From the NCBI GenBank assembly GCA_964633905.1, contig CAZWIT010000001.1:65535-129534 (forward strand): a DNA stretch of 64,000 nt, read 5' to 3'. A program made the position numbers and the translations under genes. Each line of letters starts with the position of its first letter. The first letter of the stretch is position 1. This document shows positions 5,140-59,091 of the stretch, piece by piece. The notes under the pieces are model-generated. The model was not told where the DNA came from, ran no database searches, and saw only the letters and a list, made by a program, of their open reading frames with translations. The DNA is from an uncultured Gammaproteobacteria bacterium (GTDB taxonomy: Bacteria; Patescibacteriota; Patescibacteriia; UBA1558; GWA2-36-10).

Positions 5140-5295
5140 ATAAAAAAAACAGCTCAGCTTTTCCTTAAAAACTGGGCTTTTTTGTGTACAATTTTTATAT
5201 TGACAAAAATTATAGGAGTGCTAGCATATAGGCTTATCTAGCATAAAGGATGCTAAGTTCTTCGGAAGTAGTATCAAGGGGGTATAGGCAATTTG

Positions 5296-5370
5296 CCGCG
5301 CGTAGCTCAGCTGGACAGAGCACTCTCATTACGAAGAGAGAGGTCGGAGGTTCAAGTCCTTCCGCGTGCC
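5296..5370 (+). tRNA. tRNA, probably Val (anticodon TAC)
   Basis: Cloverleaf: D-arm GCTCAGCTGGACAGAGC, T-arm GGAGGTTCAAGTCCTTC, anticodon region CTCTC-ATTACGA(A)-GAGAG resembling E. coli tRNA-Val(UAC). The anticodon loop appears to be 8 nt and the acceptor stem has a mismatch, so it needs a tRNAscan check. It overlaps a spurious ORF 5250..5876. Confidence 0.6.
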
Positions 5371-5372
5371 CC

Positions 5373-5420
5373 CGGGCTCGCTGGCGTAAAAAAACGTCAG
5401 CGAGCCCTTTATTTTTGACA
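5373..5420 (+). terminator. Rho-independent terminator after the tRNA
   Basis: GGGCTCGCTGGCG-taaaaaaa-CGTCAGCGAGCCC stem followed by TTTATTTTT. Confidence 0.7.
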
Positions 5421-6006: not shown

Positions 6007-7050
6007 ATGTCAAAACAAGAAAATTCAGCAAAAAAGGAGCGTATTTTAACTGGCATGCGACCAACTGGCAGTCTGCACCTGGGACATTATGTTGGCGCTT
6101 TAGAAAATTGGATTAAATTGCAGAATGAGTATGACTGTCATTTTTTGATTGCTGATTATCAAGCCTTTGGTGATTATGCGGATAATATTTCTAAAATCAG
6201 AGATTCGGTTATCCAAGTAACAATAGATTGGTTGTCAGTTGGTTTGGATCCAAATAAAAATACTTTTGTTATTCAAAGCTATGTGCCAGAACACGCAGAG
6301 CTAGCCATGCTTTTGAGTATGATTACTCCTAGGGTATTAATTGATCGTAATCCAACTTTAAAAGACGAATCAGCTTTACAAAAAGATATTTCTTTAGGTT
6401 TTTATAATTATCCGGCTAGCCAAGCGGCTGATATACTTTTACCAAAAGCAAATTTAGTGCCAGTAGGCGAGGATCAGTTGCCTCACATTGAGCTTACTCG
6501 GGAAATTGCTAGAAGATTTAATCGTATGTACGGCGAAATTTTTCCTTTGCCCAAAGCTTTAGTAGGTAGGGTGCCGCGTTTAATAGGGATTGATGGTAAG
6601 GCTAAGATGAGTAAGAGTTTGGGTAATTGTATTTATTTGTCAGATAGTGCTGATTTGGTCGAGAAAAAAGTCAAAAAAATGTACACTGATCCAACTAGAC
6701 TTAAAGCCACTGATCCAGGTCATATTGAGGGTAATGTAGTTTTTACTTATTTAGACGCTTTTTATCATGACAAAACAGAGCTTGATAATTTAAAGAAAGA
6801 ATATCGGGCTGGTAAGCTAGGCGATGCTCAAGTAAAGAGTCTTTTGACAGGAATATTAAATAATTTTTTGGAGCCAATTAGAGAAAAAAGAGCTTTTTAT
6901 CAAGCTCATCCAGAAATGATTAAAGATGCCTTAATTGAAGGTACGCAAAAAAATAAAAAATTAGCAGCAACTACCATGGCCGAAGTTAAAGAAGCTATGA
7001 AAATAACAGCTTACGAAGACATTAAAAATATTAAAAAAATAATTTTATAA
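6007..7050 (+). CDS. trpS: Tryptophanyl-tRNA synthetase (housekeeping copy)
   Basis: TGSLHLGHYVGAL (HIGH-like) and KMSKSLGN motifs. AT-rich native codon usage. No SD. Confidence 0.95.
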   Translation: MSKQENSAKKERILTGMRPTGSLHLGHYVGALENWIKLQNEYDCHFLIADYQAFGDYADNISKIRDSVIQVTIDWLSVGLDPNKNTFVIQSYVPEHAELAMLLSMITPRVLIDRNPTLKDESALQKDISLGFYNYPASQAADILLPKANLVPVGEDQLPHIELTREIARRFNRMYGEIFPLPKALVGRVPRLIGIDGKAKMSKSLGNCIYLSDSADLVEKKVKKMYTDPTRLKATDPGHIEGNVVFTYLDAFYHDKTELDNLKKEYRAGKLGDAQVKSLLTGILNNFLEPIREKRAFYQAHPEMIKDALIEGTQKNKKLAATTMAEVKEAMKITAYEDIKNIKKIIL

Positions 7051-8413: not shown

Positions 8414-9226
8414 TTAAGTAATTTTATTAATTATTTTTTTTACTTTATTTTTGGAAATTCTTTGTTGCCAGCCTTTGACGTTGATTTCATTATTTTTATT
8501 ATTACCTTCTTTTAGAGAAGTGCTGACAATAACTCCATTAGCATATTGTAATAATGTTTTAATATTTTTATGGTCAGCTCCGCTACCGATAAATATTGGG
8601 AAATTACCAACGCTATTTCTTAATTTTTTTAACTCATCAAGATTAGGCGCTTGGCCAGTCCAATTGCCAGTAATAATTAAAGCATCAGAGCCGCTCTTAA
8701 TTGCCATTTTTGCAGATTGATATAAATTGTATTTTGATAATATTTTTGAGTGCTTAACGTGAATATCGGTAAAAAGTAAAATATTATTTGCTTTTAATTG
8801 TTGGCGGTATTTAACAGCTTGTTTATATACAGGCTCAACTAAACCGCAACTGGTACGAACTTTATCTACAAATACAGGTATTCTAATAAATTTTAAATCT
8901 AAAGTTTTGGCAATGCTTAAGCTTGTTTTATAGTCATTCCACAGGGTGCTAATGCCGATTGGTAATGTGCTTTGTTTTTTAATTTTTTCTCCTAAATAAG
9001 TCATGGCGACAATAGTTTCAGGGTTTACCATTATTTGGTGGGGGATATCGTAATTATTTTCAAAAATAACAGCATCAACTCCACCATCACTAAAGGCTTT
9101 AAGATCACTTAAGGCATTCTGGCTAGCGATTTTAAAACCAGGGAAATCAGGATAAGCTAAAAGTGGGGGAAAATGCAGAGCCCCAATGATAATATTTTTA
9201 TTTTTTTTGAATATTTTTTTTAACAT
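8414..9226 (-). CDS. BtpA/SgcQ-family TIM-barrel protein
   Basis: Start MLKKIFKKNKNIIIGALHFPPLLAYPDFPGFK… is typical of the BtpA family (PF03437). Native AT-rich composition. Confidence 0.75.
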   Translation of the reverse strand: MLKKIFKKNKNIIIGALHFPPLLAYPDFPGFKIASQNALSDLKAFSDGGVDAVIFENNYDIPHQIMVNPETIVAMTYLGEKIKKQSTLPIGISTLWNDYKTSLSIAKTLDLKFIRIPVFVDKVRTSCGLVEPVYKQAVKYRQQLKANNILLFTDIHVKHSKILSKYNLYQSAKMAIKSGSDALIITGNWTGQAPNLDELKKLRNSVGNFPIFIGSGADHKNIKTLLQYANGVIVSTSLKEGNNKNNEINVKGWQQRISKNKVKKIINKIT

Positions 9227-9323: not shown

Positions 9324-10487
9324 TTAATTTGGTAACATCTTAGCTACCAATCTCATCGTTTCAAGGGCTTGGCCACTTTTGAGAGCAGCTTCAGCCATTT
9401 TGAAACCTTCGGCAAAAGATTTGCAATAACCAGCTAGGTAGTAGAGCAAGGAAGCGTTCGCATAGACAGTGCTCATGCGTTCGCCGTTAATTTCTCCAGA
9501 CAGGAGCTGGAGCGAATATTCGCCTTTATTGCCAATCGGGCGCACAGCTTCCAGTGGGATAGGGTGAATACCAAAATTTTCGGCACTAAGCTCGTATTCC
9601 AAAATTTCTTCATTACGCAATTCAGCAACTTGAGTACCACCATGGCACACAGAAGCTTCGTCCATACCAAAGATTCTTGATTCATCAGCAAAACCACGAA
9701 TAAATAGGCCGTGCTTGAGATGTGTTAAGCCTTTCTGATTAAGAATCAAATAAACTTCAGCTACGACGCGAGGCGGGATCAGTTGATTCACGCCCAGAAC
9801 ACGCCTGGTCATGAGTTTAGTGGATATAGGATTAGTGATGGGTCCGATGATGTCATTCATATGGGGTAGTTTAGCAAAGCTATGGGTTTGCAAATGAATC
9901 TTTTTGTAGCGAGTATCAAGTGCTTCCGTATACCCAAAATTATATTTTCTCAATGCTTCCATTACTTTGTCTTTGTCGGCAAAAGTATTAATGCGACAAA
10001 TTTTAGAAACAAAATCAGAACTACCATAAAGACCTTTATCAGCATTGGCAGGGGAACCGTGTTTGCACATCGGTATGCCATCAGAGGCAGCAATAAATGC
10101 TGACACCGTGCTAATATTAGCGGTAACGATCAGATCGCCACCCATGCCGCAATTATCCATTGCAAATTCCATTTCCGGGTTCAAGAATCCAAATTCGGAT
10201 TTAGCAATATCATGTTCAAAAATAGCAGCACAGATACCAGCAATTTGTTCAGCTGGACTCTTGGGCAGTGGATGACCGTGATGTTCTTCAAGACGCTTGT
10301 TCCATTGCCAGTTATAGGTAGCTTGGCTGTGCAGAGCGCAAAGGACAGCCACGCTTTGTATCTGCGCAAGGGCATTACCAGCGCATCCATCTAGCGTGTA
10401 GACACCCAAGGCGTAAGCTTCGTCATATGTCAAAGGAATATTCTGATAAGCATGATCTTTGAGTAGGTGCTTGACATCGATGGGCAT
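9324..10487 (-). CDS. Glycosyltransferase family 3 protein, anthranilate phosphoribosyltransferase (TrpD)-like paralog
   Basis: GMGGDL (the TrpD GTGGD PRPP motif) and CKHGSPANADKG (TrpD KHGNR region). SD AAGGAG 8 nt before ATG (MPIDVKHLL…). Elevated GC (~48%). The track ORF 9324..10532 includes a 5' extension. Confidence 0.7.
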   Translation of the reverse strand: MPIDVKHLLKDHAYQNIPLTYDEAYALGVYTLDGCAGNALAQIQSVAVLCALHSQATYNWQWNKRLEEHHGHPLPKSPAEQIAGICAAIFEHDIAKSEFGFLNPEMEFAMDNCGMGGDLIVTANISTVSAFIAASDGIPMCKHGSPANADKGLYGSSDFVSKICRINTFADKDKVMEALRKYNFGYTEALDTRYKKIHLQTHSFAKLPHMNDIIGPITNPISTKLMTRRVLGVNQLIPPRVVAEVYLILNQKGLTHLKHGLFIRGFADESRIFGMDEASVCHGGTQVAELRNEEILEYELSAENFGIHPIPLEAVRPIGNKGEYSLQLLSGEINGERMSTVYANASLLYYLAGYCKSFAEGFKMAEAALKSGQALETMRLVAKMLPN

Positions 10488-10519
10488 TGTTGGTGCTCCT
10501 TCTTTTAGGCTAGTTGCCT

Positions 10520-11023
10520 TTATCCCAACCACTCTATTAGCTTGTCCATTCCTAGTCTCACGGTATTGTGAATAGATATTATAACCATTTGATGAGATTC
10601 GGAATCTTTATTTCCATTAGGGTCTATTATGTCACTAACATCAGTGGATAATTCCCCGAATAATCTTATTTTATAAAAATATTGGGGGAATTGTTCTTTA
10701 AGTTTAGTCAGTATGTAAGAATCCATGGCCAATATTTGTTCAGCCTGGTGAATTATGTCGTTATCTATCGGAGTAGATTTTTTATCAATAGGTATTTCTA
10801 TACCTATATTATCCAGGTATGGTTTAGCCAAATTATATTCTTCTGAGTAATCACGAAGATTAAGATGTTTTGGTAAGGGTAGACCCATTGTGCCTTGTAA
10901 GCTTCTAGAAACTACACTTATAGTATCTTCTTTGCCTATTTTTTTTATTTCTTTTTGCATACATAATTCAGCAATCACTGAGCGATATATATTGCCTTTG
11001 CAGACTATTAAAATGGTTTTCAT
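10520..11023 (-). CDS. Low-molecular-weight protein tyrosine phosphatase / ArsC-like (CX5R P-loop)
   Basis: VCKGNIYRS P-loop near the N-terminus and a C-terminal DP motif. SD AAGGAGG 8 nt upstream. First gene of a minus-strand operon with the TrpD-like gene. Confidence 0.7.
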   Translation of the reverse strand: MKTILIVCKGNIYRSVIAELCMQKEIKKIGKEDTISVVSRSLQGTMGLPLPKHLNLRDYSEEYNLAKPYLDNIGIEIPIDKKSTPIDNDIIHQAEQILAMDSYILTKLKEQFPQYFYKIRLFGELSTDVSDIIDPNGNKDSESHQMVIISIHNTVRLGMDKLIEWLG

Positions 11024-11149
11024 TTCTTTAGCCTCCTTGTTTTGCGGGAAATTTGTAATATCGTTTTACAACCTAAGCTATAATGTTAAAGAGCAAGTCG
11101 ATAAATTAAACATAAATGTACGAAAAAGTCAATAAAAAAACTTCTTATC

Positions 11150-11425
11150 CTCTTGTTACAAATATAATATTTGTACTAAAAGGACGAGAAGCTTCCCGTG
11201 GTACCACCTTTATTATTTTGATTGTTATGACAAATTAAAAAATCTGTCAGTAAAACAGATCAAAATCACTTTTACCGACTCAAGCCCCATTAGCTTATGC
11301 TTATGGCGACATCAGTTAGCCCATGATTACGGAGGCTGCCGAGTTATCACTAACGCAATAACCATCTCTGCGTGCCCAACCCCGCAATTTGCGGGACACG
11401 CTTCATAGATTTTGTAATTTTCAAA
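11150..11425 (-). ncRNA. Candidate T-box riboswitch leader (minus strand) upstream of the phosphatase/TrpD-like operon
   Basis: The minus-strand RNA contains AAUAAAGGUGGUACCACGGG. This matches the T-box antiterminator consensus AAUUAGGGUGGUACCGCGG at 18/20 positions. It lies in a GC-richer, hairpin-dense ~270-nt leader between a candidate minus-strand promoter (TTGACA at plus 11460-11465 as complement) and the ATG at 11023. A terminator helix could not be folded convincingly by eye. Confidence 0.4.
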
Positions 11426-11480
11426 GTATTAATATTATCTTATATTTTATTATTATTTTTGTCAAGCTTGTTATTAATGC

Positions 11481-11515
11481 CTTGACATAAGCCTTTTTTT
11501 ATGTATAATACCATT
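11481..11515 (+). promoter_or_regulatory. Consensus sigma70 promoter for tRNA-Trp (TTGACA-16-TATAAT)
   Basis: cTTGACAtaagcctttttttatgTATAATacc, ~20 nt upstream of the tRNA 5' end. The minus-strand -35 TTGACA (complement of plus 11460-11465) lies just upstream, ~16 nt away (back-to-back, not overlapping). Confidence 0.6.
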
Positions 11516-11537: not shown

Positions 11538-11612
11538 GGGCGCGTCGGTTAATTGGTAAACCACTGGTCTCCAAAACCAGGACTGGGGGTTCGAGTCCCT
11601 CCGCGCCTGCCA
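11538..11612 (+). tRNA. tRNA-Trp (anticodon CCA), CCA encoded
   Basis: Acceptor GGGCGCG/CGCGCCU, D-arm GGTTAATTGGTAAAACC, anticodon stem-loop CTGGT-CTCCAAA-ACCAG, T-loop TTCGAGT, discriminator G, 3' CCA. Confidence 0.85.
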
Positions 11613-11660: not shown

Positions 11661-11827
11661 GACAATTATTTAGAATTATGGTAATTTCATAGGCAATTTA
11701 AGGTACATTGATAATATAAAGAAAGTACCATTTTCTATACAAAAACTGATATTTTTAGCGATTTTGGAAATATAGTTTTTACTTGTTAACTTCACCACAA
11801 CTAACACAGGAAAACGGAGGTGATGAC

Positions 11828-12862
11828 ATGCAAAATAAGCGTATCCTGACAGGTATGCGTACGACCGGCAGATTGCACCTTGGTCATTTTGTTGGCGCGT
11901 TGCATAGTTGGCTGGAATTGGAAAGAGAATATGAATGTTATTTTTTGTTAGCTGATGTTCAAGCTCTTACTACTCATTTTGATCGCGTGGCTGAGATTGA
12001 GGAATCAGTACGACAAGTGGTCATTGACTGGTTGTCGGTTGGCCTTGATCCCAAGCATTCTGCTTTTGTACTGCAATCAGCAGTGCGGGAATATCCGGAA
12101 CTTACTACCTATTTAGCCTTGCTAACCAGCATGGCTGAGCTAGAGAGAAATCCTACGCTAAAGGACGAGATCAAGCAACACGGCATGTCTTCAGTGAATT
12201 TGGGATTTATGATGTATCCTGTTTCACAGGCAGCTGATATTTTGCTATTCACTCCTGATCCCAGTGATCCGGAAGCTGAACTGCTAGTGCCAGTTGGCGA
12301 AGATCAGGTGCCTCATATTGAAATGAGTCGCGATTTGGCGCGGGCTTTTAATCGCCAATATGGCGATACTTTTGTTTTGCCTAAAGCTAAGGTTGGTTTT
12401 ATTCCGCGTTTGGGTGATTTGAGCGGTGGTCAGAAGAAGATGGGTAAAAGCTATGGTAATGCTATCTACCTATCTGATAATAGTAGCGATGTTTCAGAAA
12501 AAGTTCGTCTGGGTACCACTGATCCTAATAAGGCTAGAAAAAATGATCCGGGTAATCCTGACATTTGTCCAGTTTTTTCTTATCAGCAAATCTTTAATGA
12601 ATCAGAAGAGTTTCAGATTCGTAAGGATTGTATAGCTGGTAGTTTGGGTTGTGTTGATTGTAAGGCCCGCTTGGCTCAATCAATCAACACTTTTCTAGAG
12701 CCAATGCGTGATCGTAGATCAGATGTTGAACAAAAACCCGATATTGTTGCTGAAGCTGTTTGGTCCGGCACCAACCGTGCTTGTGAAATTGGTCAGAGGA
12801 CCATGGAGGAAGTGCGGCGGGTAATGCACCTGGACTACCCAAGTCTTCCCAAGCCGTCCTAA
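11828..12862 (+). CDS. Second tryptophanyl-tRNA synthetase paralog (TrpRS-II), higher GC, KMGKS variant
   Basis: TGRLHLGHFVGAL and KMGKSYGN (KMSKS→KMGKS). ~60% identity to the copy at 6007. RBS GGAGGTGA 5 nt before ATG 11828; the track ORF 11783 is a 5' extension. GC ~45% against ~35% background. Confidence 0.9.
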   Translation: MQNKRILTGMRTTGRLHLGHFVGALHSWLELEREYECYFLLADVQALTTHFDRVAEIEESVRQVVIDWLSVGLDPKHSAFVLQSAVREYPELTTYLALLTSMAELERNPTLKDEIKQHGMSSVNLGFMMYPVSQAADILLFTPDPSDPEAELLVPVGEDQVPHIEMSRDLARAFNRQYGDTFVLPKAKVGFIPRLGDLSGGQKKMGKSYGNAIYLSDNSSDVSEKVRLGTTDPNKARKNDPGNPDICPVFSYQQIFNESEEFQIRKDCIAGSLGCVDCKARLAQSINTFLEPMRDRRSDVEQKPDIVAEAVWSGTNRACEIGQRTMEEVRRVMHLDYPSLPKPS

Positions 12863-12877
12863 GGGAGGTTAGTGGTC

Positions 12878-14281
12878 ATGGAAGAAACCAAAATGTTTTC
12901 CGGTCGATGGCCCCTGGTGGGGGCCAAAGACGACACGATCCGAGCTTTCTTGGATCAGCAGTTTAAGGAAACTATTCGTTGGGGTGAAAGCGAAGTCCTG
13001 GGTTTTCCCAGTATGTCGCCACACCCTTTGGGTTTGGATATTTTGCAACAGGGTTTTCTGTTGCACGCTAACAATATTATGACCCTGACTCGTAGTAGGG
13101 GAGAAAAAGGTTTTGCTGGTTTTCAAAATATCGAGCGTGATTTGATTAATATGGTTGGCAACCTGTTGGGTGCCAAGCAAGTTGACGGCTACGTTACTTC
13201 TGGTGGAACTGAAGCTAATATGATGGGTTTGTGGGTTGGTCGTGAGAAGCTACGGCACACTGTTGTTGATCCGAGTGATAATCGGGTAGCGGTGTTAGCT
13301 TCGTCAGCTTCCCATTATAGTCTGCGTAAGGCTTGTAATCTTTTGGATTTGGGCGAGGGTATTTGGACTCCTTGTGCCAAGCCTTGCTTGGATCCTATTG
13401 GTAATAAGCCGATTAAGCATGTTTTTCATCCGTCAAACAATGGCGGTGGCCTGCATTTCATCAAGTGCGATGAAAGTGGTCGTATCGATGTTGTTGAATT
13501 GGAACGACGCATTTGTCATTTGCGTGAGCATTACGGCATTCGTCGTTTCCTGATTTTTTTGAATGAAGGTACGACTTTGACTGGCGCTATGGACAATGTC
13601 CAAAGCGTCGGCTCTCTAGTTTCTTGTTTGCGTAATGAAGTTTCGCAGCAGTGGGATTTTTATATTCATGTTGACGCTGCTTATGGTGGCTTTGTTTACC
13701 CCTTCTTGCGTGAAACGCAAGACATGAATTGGGGTTTTCGAGTGCCTCAAGTTGATTCTATGACAGTTGATCCGTATAAGATGGGGCAGTGCCCCTTGGC
13801 TGAAGGGATTTTCTTGTGTCGGCGTTCCGAACAAGGTGATGGTCCGCAATGCTATATCGAGCGTTCGGCTCATTATGTTGATGGTGCTCAAGATGATACT
13901 TTGATTGGTTCGCGTGCCGGCGCTTTTGCCGCAGCTTGCTGGGCTGTTTTCCAGCGAGAGGGTTCGAGCGGCTTTGCCGGTATGCATTCCGCATCTTTGC
14001 TGCAACGTGACTATTTGGCTGATCGTTTGGCCAAGTTGTCTTTGCAACCTCAGTGTCATTTGAATATGGTATCTTTCTATTTTCCTCAAGATCTGAATAG
14101 TGCTGTTTGGCGTCGGATGGCTGATTTGGTTACCGACTATCGTTTGATGTGGGATTGGTTTAGCCGTGATCCTGAGGATCCGGAAGATCATCCCCGCAAG
14201 ATCGTCAAGTTTAATATTACTCGTGACGTAAAAAGCGAGTGGATTGATAACTTCATTTCCGATTTGGAGAAGATTTTTTGA
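12878..14281 (+). CDS. PLP-dependent group II amino-acid decarboxylase (aromatic/tyrosine-decarboxylase-like)
   Basis: SGGTEANMMGL (S-G-G-T-E-[AS]-N signature) and TVDPYKMG (PLP-lysine region of MfnA/SPL-like decarboxylases). SD AGGGAGG 9 nt before ATG. GC ~52%. Translationally coupled to the upstream trpS paralog (16 nt gap). Confidence 0.8.
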   Translation: MEETKMFSGRWPLVGAKDDTIRAFLDQQFKETIRWGESEVLGFPSMSPHPLGLDILQQGFLLHANNIMTLTRSRGEKGFAGFQNIERDLINMVGNLLGAKQVDGYVTSGGTEANMMGLWVGREKLRHTVVDPSDNRVAVLASSASHYSLRKACNLLDLGEGIWTPCAKPCLDPIGNKPIKHVFHPSNNGGGLHFIKCDESGRIDVVELERRICHLREHYGIRRFLIFLNEGTTLTGAMDNVQSVGSLVSCLRNEVSQQWDFYIHVDAAYGGFVYPFLRETQDMNWGFRVPQVDSMTVDPYKMGQCPLAEGIFLCRRSEQGDGPQCYIERSAHYVDGAQDDTLIGSRAGAFAAACWAVFQREGSSGFAGMHSASLLQRDYLADRLAKLSLQPQCHLNMVSFYFPQDLNSAVWRRMADLVTDYRLMWDWFSRDPEDPEDHPRKIVKFNITRDVKSEWIDNFISDLEKIF

Positions 14282-47632: not shown

Positions 47633-47730
47633 ATTGCTACAATTTAGTAAATAGCCGCAGATAGTGGGTTTTTAGCTAATATTAGCTAGATATAAATCCT
47701 GCCGAGGTAAAAATTTCTTAGTTTTTATTG

Positions 47731-47754
47731 TCTGCGCTATGACGCAGATTTTTT
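47731..47754 (+). promoter_or_regulatory. L10-leader-like attenuator hairpin immediately upstream of rplJ
   Basis: TCTGCG-CTATGA-CGCAGA + TTTTTT, ending 16 nt before the rplJ ATG inside a ~140-nt 5' UTR. Confidence 0.5.
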
Positions 47755-47769
47755 AATAACAACAATAAT

Positions 47770-56062: not shown

Positions 56063-57340
56063 ATGAGTAAAATTTTGAGAAAACCATTGTTTTGGCTATT
56101 AAAGTTACTGGCTAAGGCAACTATCAAAAAATACCAACCAAAAGTGATTGGCATTACTGGTTCAGTTGGTAAAACATCGGCAAAATTTGCAACTGCTGTT
56201 GTTTTGGCATCAAAATTTTCTATTCGTTATGGTAAAAAGAATTATAATAACGAAATTGGTTTACCGCTCACTATTTTAGGAGATGATCTTACTGCTGGAA
56301 AAAATATTTTTGTTTGGTTTAGGATTTTTTTAAGGGCTTTAAAAAATTTATTATTTACAGATAAAAAATATCCTCAAGTTTTAATTTTAGAAATGGGTGC
56401 AGATCGTCCAGGTAATATTGATTATTTGGTTGATATTGCGTCACCACATATAGCAGTAATTACAGCAATTGGTGCTAGTCATTTAGAGTTTTTTGGCAGC
56501 ATTGATAAAGTATTAATTGAAAAATCTAAGATTTTTAAAAAATTAAAATCAGGCGATTGGGCCGTTTTAAATAGTGATGATGTTTATTTACAAAAAATTA
56601 TTCCTCAGATTAAAAATAATATTCACACCTTTGGCACTAGTGCGGATAGTAGTTTGCAGATTGAACAAGTGCATTTAAGTAAAAAGAATGACAGTTATGG
56701 TACTAGTTTTAAATTAAAGTTTAAAGGTGCTGAAGCGCCAGTATTTTTGCCTAATGTCTTGGGTAAACAGCAGGCCGCAGCTAGCGCTGCCGCTGCCTCT
56801 GTTGGTTTGCTTATGGGTTTAAATTTAGTAGAGATTAGTCAATCTTTGATTAATTATAAATCAGCTTTAGGCCGCACTAATTTAATTAAAGGCATAAAAA
56901 ATACTTGGATTATTGATGATACTTATAATGCTTCACCGCAATCTTGTTTGGCAGCTTTAGAAATTTTAACAAATTTTCCGCTAGCTGGTAGAAAAATAGC
57001 AGTTTTTGGTGACATGAGAGAATTGGGTAATTTTAGCGAAGAAGGGCATAGGCAAGTAGGTGAGGCAGTAGTTAAATTTAAAATAGATTATTTATTTGTT
57101 ATTGGTGAAAAATCACGCGATATTGCTCGTAGTGCGCAAGACCAGGGCATGCCCGAAGATCATATTTATCATTTTCCGCAGACAATAGAAGCAGGTATTT
57201 TTTTACAAGAGAGGTTAAAAGACAATGATATAATTTTGGTTAAGGGTTCTAGGGGTAGTAAGATGGAGCAGGTGGTGTATGAGATTATGGCTAGACCATG
57301 GGATGCGGATGAATTATTAGTTGCTAAAGTTAGTCGTTAG
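56063..57340 (+). CDS. murF: Mur ligase (UDP-MurNAc-pentapeptide synthetase MurF-like)
   Basis: GITGSVGKTS P-loop, Mur ligase middle/C domains, position after ftsI. Could alternatively be MurE. Confidence 0.7.
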   Translation: MSKILRKPLFWLLKLLAKATIKKYQPKVIGITGSVGKTSAKFATAVVLASKFSIRYGKKNYNNEIGLPLTILGDDLTAGKNIFVWFRIFLRALKNLLFTDKKYPQVLILEMGADRPGNIDYLVDIASPHIAVITAIGASHLEFFGSIDKVLIEKSKIFKKLKSGDWAVLNSDDVYLQKIIPQIKNNIHTFGTSADSSLQIEQVHLSKKNDSYGTSFKLKFKGAEAPVFLPNVLGKQQAAASAAAASVGLLMGLNLVEISQSLINYKSALGRTNLIKGIKNTWIIDDTYNASPQSCLAALEILTNFPLAGRKIAVFGDMRELGNFSEEGHRQVGEAVVKFKIDYLFVIGEKSRDIARSAQDQGMPEDHIYHFPQTIEAGIFLQERLKDNDIILVKGSRGSKMEQVVYEIMARPWDADELLVAKVSR

Positions 57341-57397
57341 TAAGTTAGTTTTGATTGACAAAGATTTATTTTTTTGTTAGAAATATTAAAGTTTTTT

Positions 57398-57472
57398 GGC
57401 CCTATCGTCTAACGGTTAGGACGCGTGGTTCTCAACCATGCAATCAGGGTTCGATTCCCTGTAGGGTCACCA
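57398..57472 (+). tRNA. tRNA-Glu (anticodon CTC), CCA encoded
   Basis: GGCCCTATCGTCTAACGGTTAGGACGCGTGG-TTCTCAA-CCATG…GGTTCGATTCCCTG-TAGGGTC-A-CCA. Similar to E. coli tRNA-Glu. Confidence 0.85.
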
Positions 57473-57473
57473 A

Positions 57474-57550
57474 GGTCGCATGGCTCAGCTGGTTAGAGCG
57501 TCGCATTCACATTGCGAAGGTCCCTGGTTCGAATCCAGGTGCGACCACCA
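57474..57550 (+). tRNA. tRNA-Val (anticodon CAC), CCA encoded
   Basis: Acceptor GGTCGCA/TGCGACC, D-arm GCTCAGCTGGTTAGAGC, anticodon stem-loop TCGCA-TTCACAT-TGCGA, T-loop TTCGAAT. 1-nt spacer from tRNA-Glu. Confidence 0.85.
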
Positions 57551-57565
57551 TTATTGAGTAATTAA

Positions 57566-57592
57566 AAAAATCAACCGATCTGGTTGTTTTTT
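57566..57592. terminator. Bidirectional terminator between the tRNAs and the GC-rich cassette
   Basis: Palindromic CAACCGATCTGGTTG flanked by A-run and T-run. A further hairpin AAGACCC…GGGTCTT (57606-57634) and GC-rich hairpin (57652-57685) serve the minus strand. Confidence 0.6.
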
Positions 57593-57700
57593 GGTATAAA
57601 AAACAAGACCCTTATTTATACTCCTTGGGTCTTAGGTAGGAGTTGGTGGTAGGCGGGCCCGAAGCTTGCAGCTTCGAACCCGCCGTACCGGTCGGAGGTG

Positions 57701-58525
57701 CTAGCCGCGCCGCGCCTTGGCAGCCGCGAGCAGCTGGTTGGCGATGACACGGGCCTCGCCGTTCACGGGCTTCAGCGGCTCGTGATCCAGCTTGGCAATG
57801 GCTTCATCCTGCACCGTGAGGTCACGGATGACCTCGTCGATGCTCTCGACGTCCGGGATCGCGATCGCGATCCCCATGCCGCCGTGGTCTCTCATGCAGA
57901 CCAGGCAGAGCCTCCAGACCTTGTCGCCGAGCGGAACCTGGGGCACGCCGTTCTTCCCGAACACGGGAATCCCGGCCTTGCCATCGATGCCGGTGCCCAG
58001 CTTGGTGACCATCTGCAGGGTGTCGGCCTCGTCTTCGCTGCGCTTCGTCTTCATCTGTGAGACGAACTCGCAGACACGGATGAAGACGCGGTCGGACGGG
58101 TAGTCCGGGTTGGTGGCGTAGAAGGCCAGCGCCGCGTTGATGTCCTTGGCGTACTGGTCGTTCTCCATCGCCATCGCCGACTTCTGCTGCTGCAGAGCCT
58201 CGATGCAATCGCGGACCCGGTCGTGGTCATGGTTCATCATGCCCACGGCCTCGTCCTGGTCGGGCCAGATCCGCATGACGAGCATGCGGTAGCCGTCGCC
58301 CGGAACCTGCAGGCCGCGCCGACGGTCGTCGATGACGACCGACAGGGGCTTGGCGGTGCCGATGCCGTGTTCGGCCGCGCCGTCTTGGACGTACACGACG
58401 CCGTAGGCGTTGCGGTACTCGCTGCGGGTGTTGCCGGTGGCGGTGGTCGGAGCGGTGGCGGTGGTCGGAGCGGTGGCGGCGGGAGCAGCGGCCTTGGGGG
58501 CCTTGGTGTTGGTCTTACGAGCCAT
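57701..58525 (-). CDS. Hypothetical 274-aa protein, ~65% GC foreign cassette gene 'B' (Ala/Pro/Thr-rich N-terminal tail)
   Basis: Coherent high-GC3 codon usage on the minus strand. SD AGGAGG 8 nt before ATG. Own consensus promoter P2 and downstream hairpins. The N-terminus MARKTNTKAPKAAAPAATAPTTATAPTTATG… is low-complexity. No motif recognised. Confidence 0.6.
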   Translation of the reverse strand: MARKTNTKAPKAAAPAATAPTTATAPTTATGNTRSEYRNAYGVVYVQDGAAEHGIGTAKPLSVVIDDRRRGLQVPGDGYRMLVMRIWPDQDEAVGMMNHDHDRVRDCIEALQQQKSAMAMENDQYAKDINAALAFYATNPDYPSDRVFIRVCEFVSQMKTKRSEDEADTLQMVTKLGTGIDGKAGIPVFGKNGVPQVPLGDKVWRLCLVCMRDHGGMGIAIAIPDVESIDEVIRDLTVQDEAIAKLDHEPLKPVNGEARVIANQLLAAAKARRG

Positions 58526-58623
58526 CTTGCTTACCTCCTGAAAATTAGAATGTGCACATCCCCTAAAGTGACAACAGTACCAACAGTCAGTACGTTTATT
58601 AGGGGATTTTTCATTATATCATA

Positions 58624-58652
58624 TATACAAATATTTGTCAAGGGTATTGAAA
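58624..58652 (-). promoter_or_regulatory. Promoter P2 (minus): TTGACA-17-TG-n-TATAAT
   Basis: Minus strand TTGACAaatatttgtatatatgaTATAAT. Confidence 0.65.
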
Positions 58653-58713
58653 AGCCCCGGCACTAGGTGCGTCGGGGCTTGGGGCGAAGTGGTACAACAC
58701 AGTCGGCTTGCTA

Positions 58714-59091
58714 CTAGATGTAGCAATTGATCTTGACCCTGGAAATGACTTCTCCAGAGACGCGATCACGAAGTAGTACTTCGTAATTGCCCACCACCAA
58801 GGTGGCTTTGGGATCGTTCATGACTTTAGCCAACAAGCGGCCATTCTTATAGATTTCCATGTAGGCCAGCTTCCTGGCCTGGTTGGATACCATGCAGATG
58901 GGCTTTTCATCAGCCAAGCGGAGGCGGATCGAATCGCCATCGACACAGACGTAGCTAGTATCGATATAGCGCGGGTTGGGCCGAACCAGGATGGTCGCTT
59001 CCCCAGGCTTGGTGATCGGCTGCGAATTGCAGGCGGCAAGCAGAGTCAGCGAAAGAAACAGCAGGCTGGCGATCAGGAAGAACTTACGCAT
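58714..59091 (-). CDS. Putative lipoprotein, GC ~55%, foreign cassette gene 'C'
   Basis: Signal peptide plus lipobox LLAAC. SD AAGGAGG 6 nt before ATG. Own promoter P3. Confidence 0.55.
   Translation of the reverse strand: MRKFFLIASLLFLSLTLLAACNSQPITKPGEATILVRPNPRYIDTSYVCVDGDSIRLRLADEKPICMVSNQARKLAYMEIYKNGRLLAKVMNDPKATLVVGNYEVLLRDRVSGEVISRVKINCYI

Follow-up and report, generated by a model that had tools for sequence, protein, structure and literature searches.

A complete T-box leader was identified at positions 11134-11415 on the minus strand of a 64,000-nucleotide stretch of contig CAZWIT010000001.1 (GenBank assembly GCA_964633905.1, contig positions 65,535 to 129,534). This whole stretch is referred to below as the window; its GC content was ~33% and its host belongs to the Patescibacteria. 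The leader is very probably a functional tryptophan-specific T-box that controls, by transcription attenuation, an operon encoding a low-molecular-weight (LMW) phosphatase-family protein, a TrpD-like phosphoribosyltransferase and a BtpA/SgcQ-family protein. An initial annotation, made from the sequence alone, had proposed a minus-strand T-box in front of the phosphatase/TrpD-like operon, and this was supported by a full-length alignment to the Rfam T-box model (RF00230), by covariation in two sequence sets and by terminator/antiterminator pairs. The tryptophan (Trp) specificity that it had suggested agreed with an invariant UGG specifier, an acceptor-pairing bulge (UGGU or UGGC) matching the discriminator base G73, and genuine Trp genes that follow this leader elsewhere. 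The leader and its candidate promoter comprised the following elements, listed from 5' to 3' of the transcript.

11437-11465, minus strand: candidate sigma-70-type promoter, TTGACA-17 nucleotides (nt)-TAAGAT (consensus scan, sequence verified)
11364-11410, minus strand: Stem I with basal kink-turn (K-turn) (Rfam alignment, minimum free energy fold, covariation of base, lower and upper helices)
within 11410-11364, minus strand: K-turn, with C-stem AUC/GAU, 3-nt bulge UAU and tandem GA/GA (sequence verified)
11401-11397 with 11374-11370, minus strand: lower helix of Stem I, GCGUG/CACGC
11396, minus strand: lone invariant U opposite the specifier bulge
11395-11381, minus strand: upper hairpin of Stem I, CCCGC-AAAUU-GCGGG (5 bp, loop AAAUU)
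11380-11375, minus strand: specifier side bulge GUUGGG, on the 3' side of Stem I
11378-11376, minus strand: Trp codon UGG inside this side bulge, followed by the purine G 11375
11342-11363, minus strand: Stem II, a 6-bp helix with the conserved loop UGCGUUAGUG (alignment and covariation)
11318-11341, minus strand: Stem IIA and pseudoknot IIB region
11341-11330, minus strand: Stem IIA, CGG/CCG, invariant
11337-11333 with 11322-11318, minus strand: pseudoknot IIB, loop AGCCU paired with GGGCU (sequences verified)
11274-11316, minus strand: PX, a helix ACUGA/UCGGU around a variable hairpin (covariation)
11215-11266, minus strand: Stem III, outer helix AUUUUGAU/AUCAAAAU (Rfam alignment, fold)
11260-11237, minus strand: nested hairpin AUCUGU-UUUACUG-ACAGAU within Stem III, followed by U6 (fold, sequence verified)
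11180-11210, minus strand: T-box sequence and antiterminator, AAGG[UGGUACC]ACGGG-AAGCUU-CUCGUCCUU (Rfam alignment, constrained fold, covariation)
11210-11195, minus strand: 7-nt T-box bulge UGGUACC in AAGG[UGGUACC]ACG
11206-11203, minus strand: acceptor-pairing bulge UGGU
11193-11141, minus strand: intrinsic terminator hairpin, -19.5 kcal/mol (energy fold)
11140-11134, minus strand: U7 tract after the terminator hairpin

Two elements that the initial annotation had left to be looked for were thus located: a UGG specifier followed by a purine in a Stem I loop, and a terminator (11193-11141 with its U7) that folds alternatively to an overlapping antiterminator. The 20-mer on which that annotation was built, AAUAAAGGUGGUACCACGGG, was confirmed at 11195-11214 on the minus strand, and the Shine-Dalgarno sequence (SD) and ATG 11023 of the first gene were as described. 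No match exceeded the Rfam gathering score (58 against 93 bits), one of two outcomes named beforehand as speaking against a T-box; the other, the lack of a foldable alternative structure, did not occur.

Detection of the leader

The 13-mer core of the T-box sequence, AGGTGGNACCNCG, was found once in the window when up to one mismatch was allowed, against 0.13 matches expected, and at least one match occurred in 13 of 100 shuffles. By itself the core was therefore only suggestive and constituted weak evidence for a T-box. An Rfam scan of the window at the gathering threshold reported no T-box. In a permissive scan, model positions 1-219 of the 219 in RF00230 aligned to 11177-11415 of the minus strand. 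This alignment, the sole T-box match in the window, scored 58 bits, and its E-value was 6e-12 locally and 5e-10 over the whole 64-kb window. In this alignment 24 nt of the leader replaced 76 Stem I model positions, and a 45-nt insertion followed the pseudoknot. Stem I is ~50 nt shorter than in the RF00230 model and this, with the insertion, accounts for the score below 93 bits; the sub-threshold result is a threshold effect, and the element is present. The 301-nt leader also folded more stably than its shuffles (z = -5.75).

A leader family in Candidate Phyla Radiation bacteria

A scan of species-representative genomes with the TrpD-like protein yielded 60 loci from bacteria of the Candidate Phyla Radiation (CPR) and archaea of the DPANN group. 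In 17 of these genomes a regular expression for the T-box core matched ahead of the TrpD-like gene, on its coding strand, and all 17 leaders contained a short hairpin and then a bulge ending in UGGG, with flanking helices that differed in sequence. The 5' halves of the 17 leaders were aligned with MAFFT under an explicit hand-written structure (base helix, two Stem I helices, Stem II, Stem IIA, pseudoknot IIB and PX). In this set 95.5% of cells were paired, and double (compensatory) changes occurred at 26 of 33 pairs, pseudoknot included. No observed measure was attained in any of 500 shuffles, and slid partners were paired in 35-55% of cells.

The covariance model built from the leaders spanned the 5' half (164 positions); the 3' half was analyzed by scripts. 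In the window the model matched exactly once, and at 26 of the 60 genome loci, ten of them outside the training set, it matched once, upstream of the TrpD-like gene. When metagenomes were scanned with a 21-mer taken from the pseudoknot region, at least 120 stretches matched; 80 loci (77 distinct sequences) were retrieved from these, and each of the 80 gave a full-length covariance-model match. Within the metagenome set 95.1% of cells were paired, with double changes at 23 of 28 pairs; slid controls were paired in 21-51%. Altogether the family comprised 107 members: 27 genome members (the window and 26 loci) and the 80 metagenome members.

The same leader occurred in Falkowbacteria, Moranbacteria, Giovannonibacteria, Taylorbacteria, Paceibacterota and others. 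As judged from these sequences, the leader is native to Patescibacteria, and its family, with over 100 members, has been missed by threshold-based Rfam annotation. No report of a T-box in Patescibacteria, CPR, Parcubacteria or DPANN was found in the searched literature, whose coverage was incomplete, so that a prior description is possible.

One genome locus (L002) carried, in addition, a second and different sub-threshold T-box at 8848-9054 on the plus strand (40 bits). In it 46 nt replaced 88 model positions of Stem I; the element had a terminator as well as a UGGU bulge and preceded another gene starting MKKINKLWGTAF. This single example hints that a design with short Stem I and terminator may be general in CPR bacteria.

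Decoding module, PX and Stem III

The 5' half of the leader formed a compact module with a short Stem I. Across the 107 members Stem I measured 11-68 nt, with a median of 35 nt, and in about half of them a three-way junction took the place of the K-turn. The distal double-T-loop platform (IDTM; AGAGA and UGxRA in this order) was searched for in Stem I and was absent from all 107. Stem II was 98-99% paired, with compensatory changes at five to six of its six pairs in the two sequence sets. The S-turn of T-boxes is a purine-rich, loop E-like motif of Stem II that supports the codon-anticodon helix, and its consensus element in Rfam is AGUA. The AGU of the Stem II loop UGCGUUAGUG aligned with this element, and its 5' partner was UGC, not GAA. 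Four of the pseudoknot IIB pairs covaried (GC to UA, CG to UA and UA to CG, and the reverse), and an F-box-like sequence, CCGUAAUCA, lay between the two pseudoknot strands.

PX corresponded to the 45-nt insertion in the Rfam alignment, between Stem IIA/B and Stem III. Compensatory changes were found at four to five of its five pairs, and 89-96% of cells were paired in the two sets. It enclosed a conserved internal loop (5' U-GUC-G, 3' GNC-N-GAG). From this covariation PX is predicted to be a helix specific to the CPR Trp T-box family. A K-turn reading of its internal loop (tandem G·A with G171/A172) was rejected because the positions covary as Watson-Crick pairs.

The nested hairpin of Stem III competed with an alternative hairpin, UGACAGA...UUUGUCA, and both pairings covaried among the leaders that have them. 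Within Stem III, and thus before the T-box decision point is reached, a hairpin with U6-8 was present in ~19 of 100 members, including L002, L022, L028, L032, L107, L133, L083, L098 and L073 beside the window. Such a hairpin and U-run could be a programmed pause signal. A programmed pause has been reported for the glyQS T-box (PMC13001445).

The PX 3' strand and its linker, UCGGUAAAA (11270-11278), were complementary to UUUUACUGA of Stem III (11247-11255), both on the minus strand. This Stem III motif repeated the CUGA of the PX 5' strand, and the same relation was seen in L002, L028 and L032; in L032 the Stem III copy CCGA fitted UCGG better than the true PX strand did. The complementarity could reflect an alternative long-range helix or a relic of duplication.

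Terminator, antiterminator and mode of regulation

The 5' arm of the terminator was the 3' strand of the antiterminator, and the shared sequence CUUCUCGUCCUU makes the two helices mutually exclusive. In the window the antiterminator reached -6.2 kcal/mol in a constrained fold, against -19.5 kcal/mol for the terminator. The same arrangement was seen in all 27 genome members, where an antiterminator of -5 to -16 kcal/mol was overlapped by a hairpin of -20 to -39 kcal/mol with a U-run after it, and a run of at least five T was found at the expected distance in all 69 metagenome members with sufficient sequence. The antiterminator helices showed compensatory changes across the 27 leaders, and the terminator arms covaried with the antiterminator strand. 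In free-energy folds the antiterminators of L019, L033, L039 and L015 had 4-bp upper helices or long loops.

In the proposed mechanism the nascent leader would fold into a compact decoding module (K-turn, short Stem I, Stem II and the IIA/B pseudoknot) and bind the anticodon arm of tRNA-Trp (CCA) through its UGG. When this tRNA is uncharged, its free 3'-GCCA would pair with the UGGU bulge, with a U·G73 wobble, and stabilize the weak antiterminator, and RNA polymerase would read through into the operon. With charged tRNA, the overlapping terminator, the stronger of the two helices, would form with U7 and transcription would stop at ~11134-11140. Capture of the tRNA would rest on a clamp of Stem I, Stem II and the pseudoknot and not on contact with the tRNA elbow, because the decoding module is platform-less (Class IV-like, and Class III-like in some relatives).

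A T-box of this kind might instead act mainly on translation initiation or mRNA stability, as actinobacterial T-boxes of Classes III and IV mostly do, with a hairpin and U-run that are not decisive. The decoding module is indeed of the Class III/IV type, whose members mostly act on translation initiation (PMC10482949; PMC7583486), and a strong SD, which few genes of the window have, precedes the controlled gene. This SD (11038-11032) lies, however, ~100 nt downstream of U7 and took part in no alternative pairing with the T-box region. SD sequestration, the usual expression platform of Class III and IV, was not found in the window leader, whose expression platform is the terminator hairpin with U7. 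The hairpin that overlaps the antiterminator and its U-run were, moreover, kept throughout (27 of 27 genome and 69 of 69 metagenome members), with covarying arms, and the distance from leader to first start codon differed widely among loci. Regulation mainly at translation or stability is thus improbable. Attenuation is best supported because a terminator/antiterminator pair is present in every member while the SD is far downstream and unpaired.

Specificity for tRNA-Trp

The specifier bulge sequence UGGG was invariant: none of the 27 genome members departed from it, nor did any of the 79 metagenome members that include the region (the 80th, L066, is truncated at its 5' end). The bases preceding UGG in the bulge varied (GUU, GCU, GGU, AUU, shorter or absent), and the flanking helices varied and covaried. 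At the other end of the leader, the acceptor-pairing bulge was UGGU in 71 and UGGC in 29 of the 100 members tested, and UGGA or UGGG in none. Known Trp T-boxes in TBDB show the same split between U and C opposite G73, a feature peculiar to Trp (PMC7778990).

A tRNA-Trp gene with its own promoter-like site was found next to the leader.

11538-11612, plus strand: tRNA-Trp, anticodon CCA, discriminator G73, encoded CCA end (ARAGORN and Rfam)
11482-11509, plus strand: candidate tRNA-Trp promoter, TTGACA-16-TATAAT

The tRNA-Trp(CCA) gene is separated by 123 nt from the leader's 5' end and is divergently transcribed, with the two promoter-like sites back to back, ~17 bp apart. At the other family loci, 11 of the 13 tRNA genes within ~4 kb were tRNA-Trp (linkage in L002, L004, L006, L009, L011, L012, L015, L028, L039 and L051). 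G73 was present in 12 of 12 tRNA-Trp genes, namely the 11 linked at related loci and that of the window. The invariant UGGG, the restriction of the acceptor bulge to UGGU and UGGC, G73, the tRNA-Trp linkage and the Trp regulon described below all agree, and by this comparative evidence the window leader is supported as specific for tRNA-Trp, its presumed ligand.

Another frame of GUUGGG could in principle be read as UUG or CUG (Leu), GGG (Gly) or GUU (Val). The triplets in the bulge overlap, UUG and the variant CUG are both Leu codons, and UGGU can also pair with an A73 discriminator. In the family, however, UGG and the following G never vary while the preceding bases do, which rules out Leu, Val and other frames, and the variants GUGGG and GGUGGG break the Leu frame. 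In bacteria the discriminator is A73 for tRNA-Leu and U73 for tRNA-Gly; the UGGC of 29 of 100 members pairs with the G73 of tRNA-Trp and with neither of these. The linked tRNAs are tRNA-Trp, and TrpRS, TrpB, TrpA and TrpB2 are among the regulated genes. A specificity other than Trp is accordingly very unlikely.

Regulated operon and wider regulon

Downstream of the leader the operon contained three genes.

11038-11032, minus strand: SD AAGGAGG of the first gene, whose ATG at 11023 starts ~110 nt past U7
10520-11038, minus strand: LMW phosphatase-family protein, 167 amino acids (aa), first gene (Pfam LMWPc, 47.3 bits)
9324-10532, minus strand: TrpD-like phosphoribosyltransferase, 402 aa, second gene, overlapping the end of the phosphatase gene (Pfam Glycos_transf_3)
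8414-9226, minus strand: BtpA/SgcQ-family TIM-barrel protein, 270 aa, probable third gene (Pfam BtpA, 198 bits; NCBIfam BtpA/SgcQ subfamily)

The TrpD-like protein scored 140 bits against NCBIfam trpD, below the 199-bit cut-off, and its closest solved relatives were anthranilate phosphoribosyltransferases. Its phosphoribosyl pyrophosphate/Mg motifs CGMGGD, NIST and GMDE were retained, and KHGN was changed to KHGS. This pattern suggests that the enzyme is an active phosphoribosyltransferase whose acceptor site may be altered. Hundreds of homologues were found at ~60% identity, and the named ones came from Patescibacteria or Parcubacteria. In some genomes the LMW phosphatase domain was fused to the TrpD-like protein (P0066; L012). 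The BtpA/SgcQ gene followed the TrpD-like gene in 22 of 27 loci and is probably co-transcribed as the third gene of the window's operon; the only PDB sequence match of its protein was tryptophan synthase alpha (E = 2e-4). Nothing relevant to a link between BtpA and anthranilate phosphoribosyltransferase was found in the searched literature, the coverage of which was incomplete.

In other CPR contigs the same leader preceded genes for tryptophanyl-tRNA synthetase (TrpRS), a TrpB-type protein with TrpA, TrpA with TrpB2, and TrpB2 alone (684 bits to NF009057; 214 and 233 bits to Trp_syntA). Other genes in or beside the operon at other loci encoded HAD phosphatases, a small PfkB-like kinase, an APH-like protein, a class-I glutamine amidotransferase, an EamA transporter, an amino-acid dehydrogenase with an aminotransferase, TrpRS and a chorismate-mutase fusion. 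A tblastn search for TrpB2 and TrpA gave no match in the window or in the 60 genome loci, so that no complete Trp route is shown by the window alone. Control of trpBA, TrpB2 and TrpRS by the leader elsewhere makes a role in tryptophan supply the natural hypothesis for the window's operon.

The TrpD-like gene was also found in DPANN archaea (Woesearchaeota, Nanoarchaeota and Nanohaloarchaeota) at 41-52% identity, and was thus common to both groups of ultrasmall episymbionts. The covariance model found no T-box at the DPANN loci L041, L043, L044, L046-L050, L053, L054, L056, L057 and L060. A fusion of chorismate mutase type II with an S-adenosylmethionine (SAM) methyltransferase (~391 aa) stood beside the operon in five genomes (L029, L033, L051, L052 and L055), and a radical-SAM/SPASM protein recurred beside the Trp T-box operon in four genomes.

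Comparison with known T-box classes

T-boxes have been placed in four classes, of which Class III and Class IV were described from actinobacterial ileS leaders that mostly regulate translation initiation (PMC10482949). The IDTM, an interdigitated double T-loop that stacks on the tRNA elbow, is regarded in the T-box literature as generally required in transcriptional T-boxes (PMC7583486), and reviews treat it as dispensable in translational ones only.

The decoding module of the window leader fits the structural definition of Class IV, exemplified by Actinomyces odontolyticus ileS (PMC10482949). Shared elements were the basal K-turn, an intermediate Stem I without IDTM, a side bulge that holds the specifier, Stem II, the Stem IIA/B pseudoknot and the UGGN discriminator bulge. 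Class IV is specific for Ile, occurs in Actinobacteria and uses an SD sequestrator, whereas the window family reads Trp (UGG), occurs in Patescibacteria and has an intrinsic terminator with U-run. The family also differs in the extra covarying PX between Stem IIA/B and Stem III, and in the three-way junction that replaces the K-turn in about half of its members.

Class III, known from co-crystal structures of Mycobacterium and Nocardia ileS leaders (via PMC10482949 and PMC7583486), was resembled by L009, L015, L029 and five to six metagenome members. In these relatives Stem I was very short, with the specifier in its apical loop, and Stem II and the pseudoknot were kept; by analogy, such leaders likely bind the anticodon arm with a Stem I/Stem II clamp. 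The window leader, in contrast, has the side-bulge form, all family members have terminators, and amino acid and phylum differ from those of Class III.

With the Class I Trp T-boxes of Firmicutes (RF00230; TBDB) the family shares UGG followed by a purine, the UGGU/UGGC split opposite G73 and the terminator/antiterminator switch, as well as, in some members, control of trp biosynthesis genes and TrpRS. Class I has a Stem I of ~85-100 nt in which an AG bulge and distal loop form the IDTM, whereas the median Stem I of the window family is far shorter and lacks it. The window operon further differs in encoding the non-canonical TrpD-like, BtpA and LMW phosphatase proteins, and the family scores 43-58 bits in Rfam against the 93-bit cut-off. 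On the strength of its sequences, the family is classified here as a platform-less, terminator-type, Trp-specific T-box variant that combines a Class III/IV-type decoding module with an intrinsic terminator.

Origin of the leader and weight of the evidence

The initial annotation had suggested that the leader would be an unusual transferred regulatory unit in a host without SDs. A recent transfer of a Firmicutes-type T-box unit, foreign to the host's repertoire, would be in keeping with the fact that T-boxes are best known from Firmicutes and with a leader somewhat richer in GC than its AT-rich surroundings. The neighboring block with a second TrpRS and a decarboxylase (12001-14000) likewise has 46% GC against ~33% elsewhere. 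The leader nevertheless recurred in many Patescibacteria lineages, where it preceded the same operon and shared an architecture that is not of the Firmicutes type (short Stem I, PX), and in at least 120 metagenome stretches, its members reached only 43-58 bits against an Rfam model built mostly on Firmicutes sequences, and the GC-rich TrpRS/decarboxylase pair recurred in seven family loci, the window included. A transferred unit is on these grounds hardly tenable. The host, for its part, proved SD-poor rather than SD-less, with an SD core at 6 of 43 long open reading frames against a background of 1%.

Chance resemblance in a structured, GC-elevated intergenic patch without regulatory function, to which the core in 13 of 100 window shuffles and the sub-threshold Rfam score might point, is refuted for practical purposes by the full-length match (E = 5e-10), the covariation in two independent sets and 107 homologous leaders with conserved positions.

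Several points weigh against a functional, attenuating Trp T-box in the window. The evidence for function is entirely computational. The Rfam score of the leader lies below the gathering score, and of 16 relatives none reached it (T-box scores of 43-58 bits or unreported). The S-turn of Stem II matches the consensus only in part (AGUG against AGUA). The IDTM is absent in all members, and efficient co-transcriptional capture of the tRNA is then not guaranteed. The promoter is a consensus match and the terminator an energy prediction, both by rules from model bacteria, and the regulated genes of the window are not established Trp genes. Two extensions of the attenuation reading are put forward only tentatively and appear rather doubtful: that PX or a pause signal in Stem III makes up for the lack of the platform, and that a new Trp-supply pathway is encoded by the operon.

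Implications

The family extends T-boxes to the Candidate Phyla Radiation. With more than 100 members that combine a platform-less module and a conserved terminator, it offers a direct test of the platform rule for transcriptional T-boxes, and its leaders, at ~280 nt, provide a compact natural scaffold. For annotation, standard pipelines overlook the whole family (43-58 bits against a 93-bit cut-off). A native tRNA-responsive switch is also a possible genetic tool for Patescibacteria.

The regulon ties the TrpD-like, BtpA/SgcQ and LMW phosphatase proteins, HAD phosphatases, the PfkB-like kinase and others to tryptophan limitation, and provides a testable functional hypothesis for a gene pair common to CPR bacteria and DPANN archaea. 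If it is true, the TrpD-like and BtpA pair with its phosphatases and kinases would mark an unrecognized pathway of tryptophan supply, by salvage or by non-canonical synthesis, in organisms thought to be without amino-acid biosynthesis.

Neighboring features of the window

A second TrpRS (359 aa) and, immediately after it, a pyridoxal phosphate-dependent decarboxylase (469 aa) were encoded at 11783-14281 on the plus strand, in a block of 46% GC. The pair recurred beside the T-box operon in L001, L004, L006, L009, L015 and L028, and is on account of this recurrence a conserved module of CPR bacteria rather than an isolated island. The first TrpRS of the window was located at 6007-7050. Upstream of it, at 5295-5373 on the plus strand, ARAGORN called a tRNA with a 4-base anticodon, 'tacg', in an 8-nt loop, which scored 42 bits against the Rfam tRNA model.

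The region 57001-59000 had a GC content of 49-58% against ~33% elsewhere. Genes for tRNA-Glu and tRNA-Val (57398-57550) stood at its start, and the rest of it contained no Rfam family at the gathering threshold. At 47637-47763 on the plus strand a ribosomal protein L10 leader (RF00557) matched over the full model length with 40 bits, against a threshold of 44.

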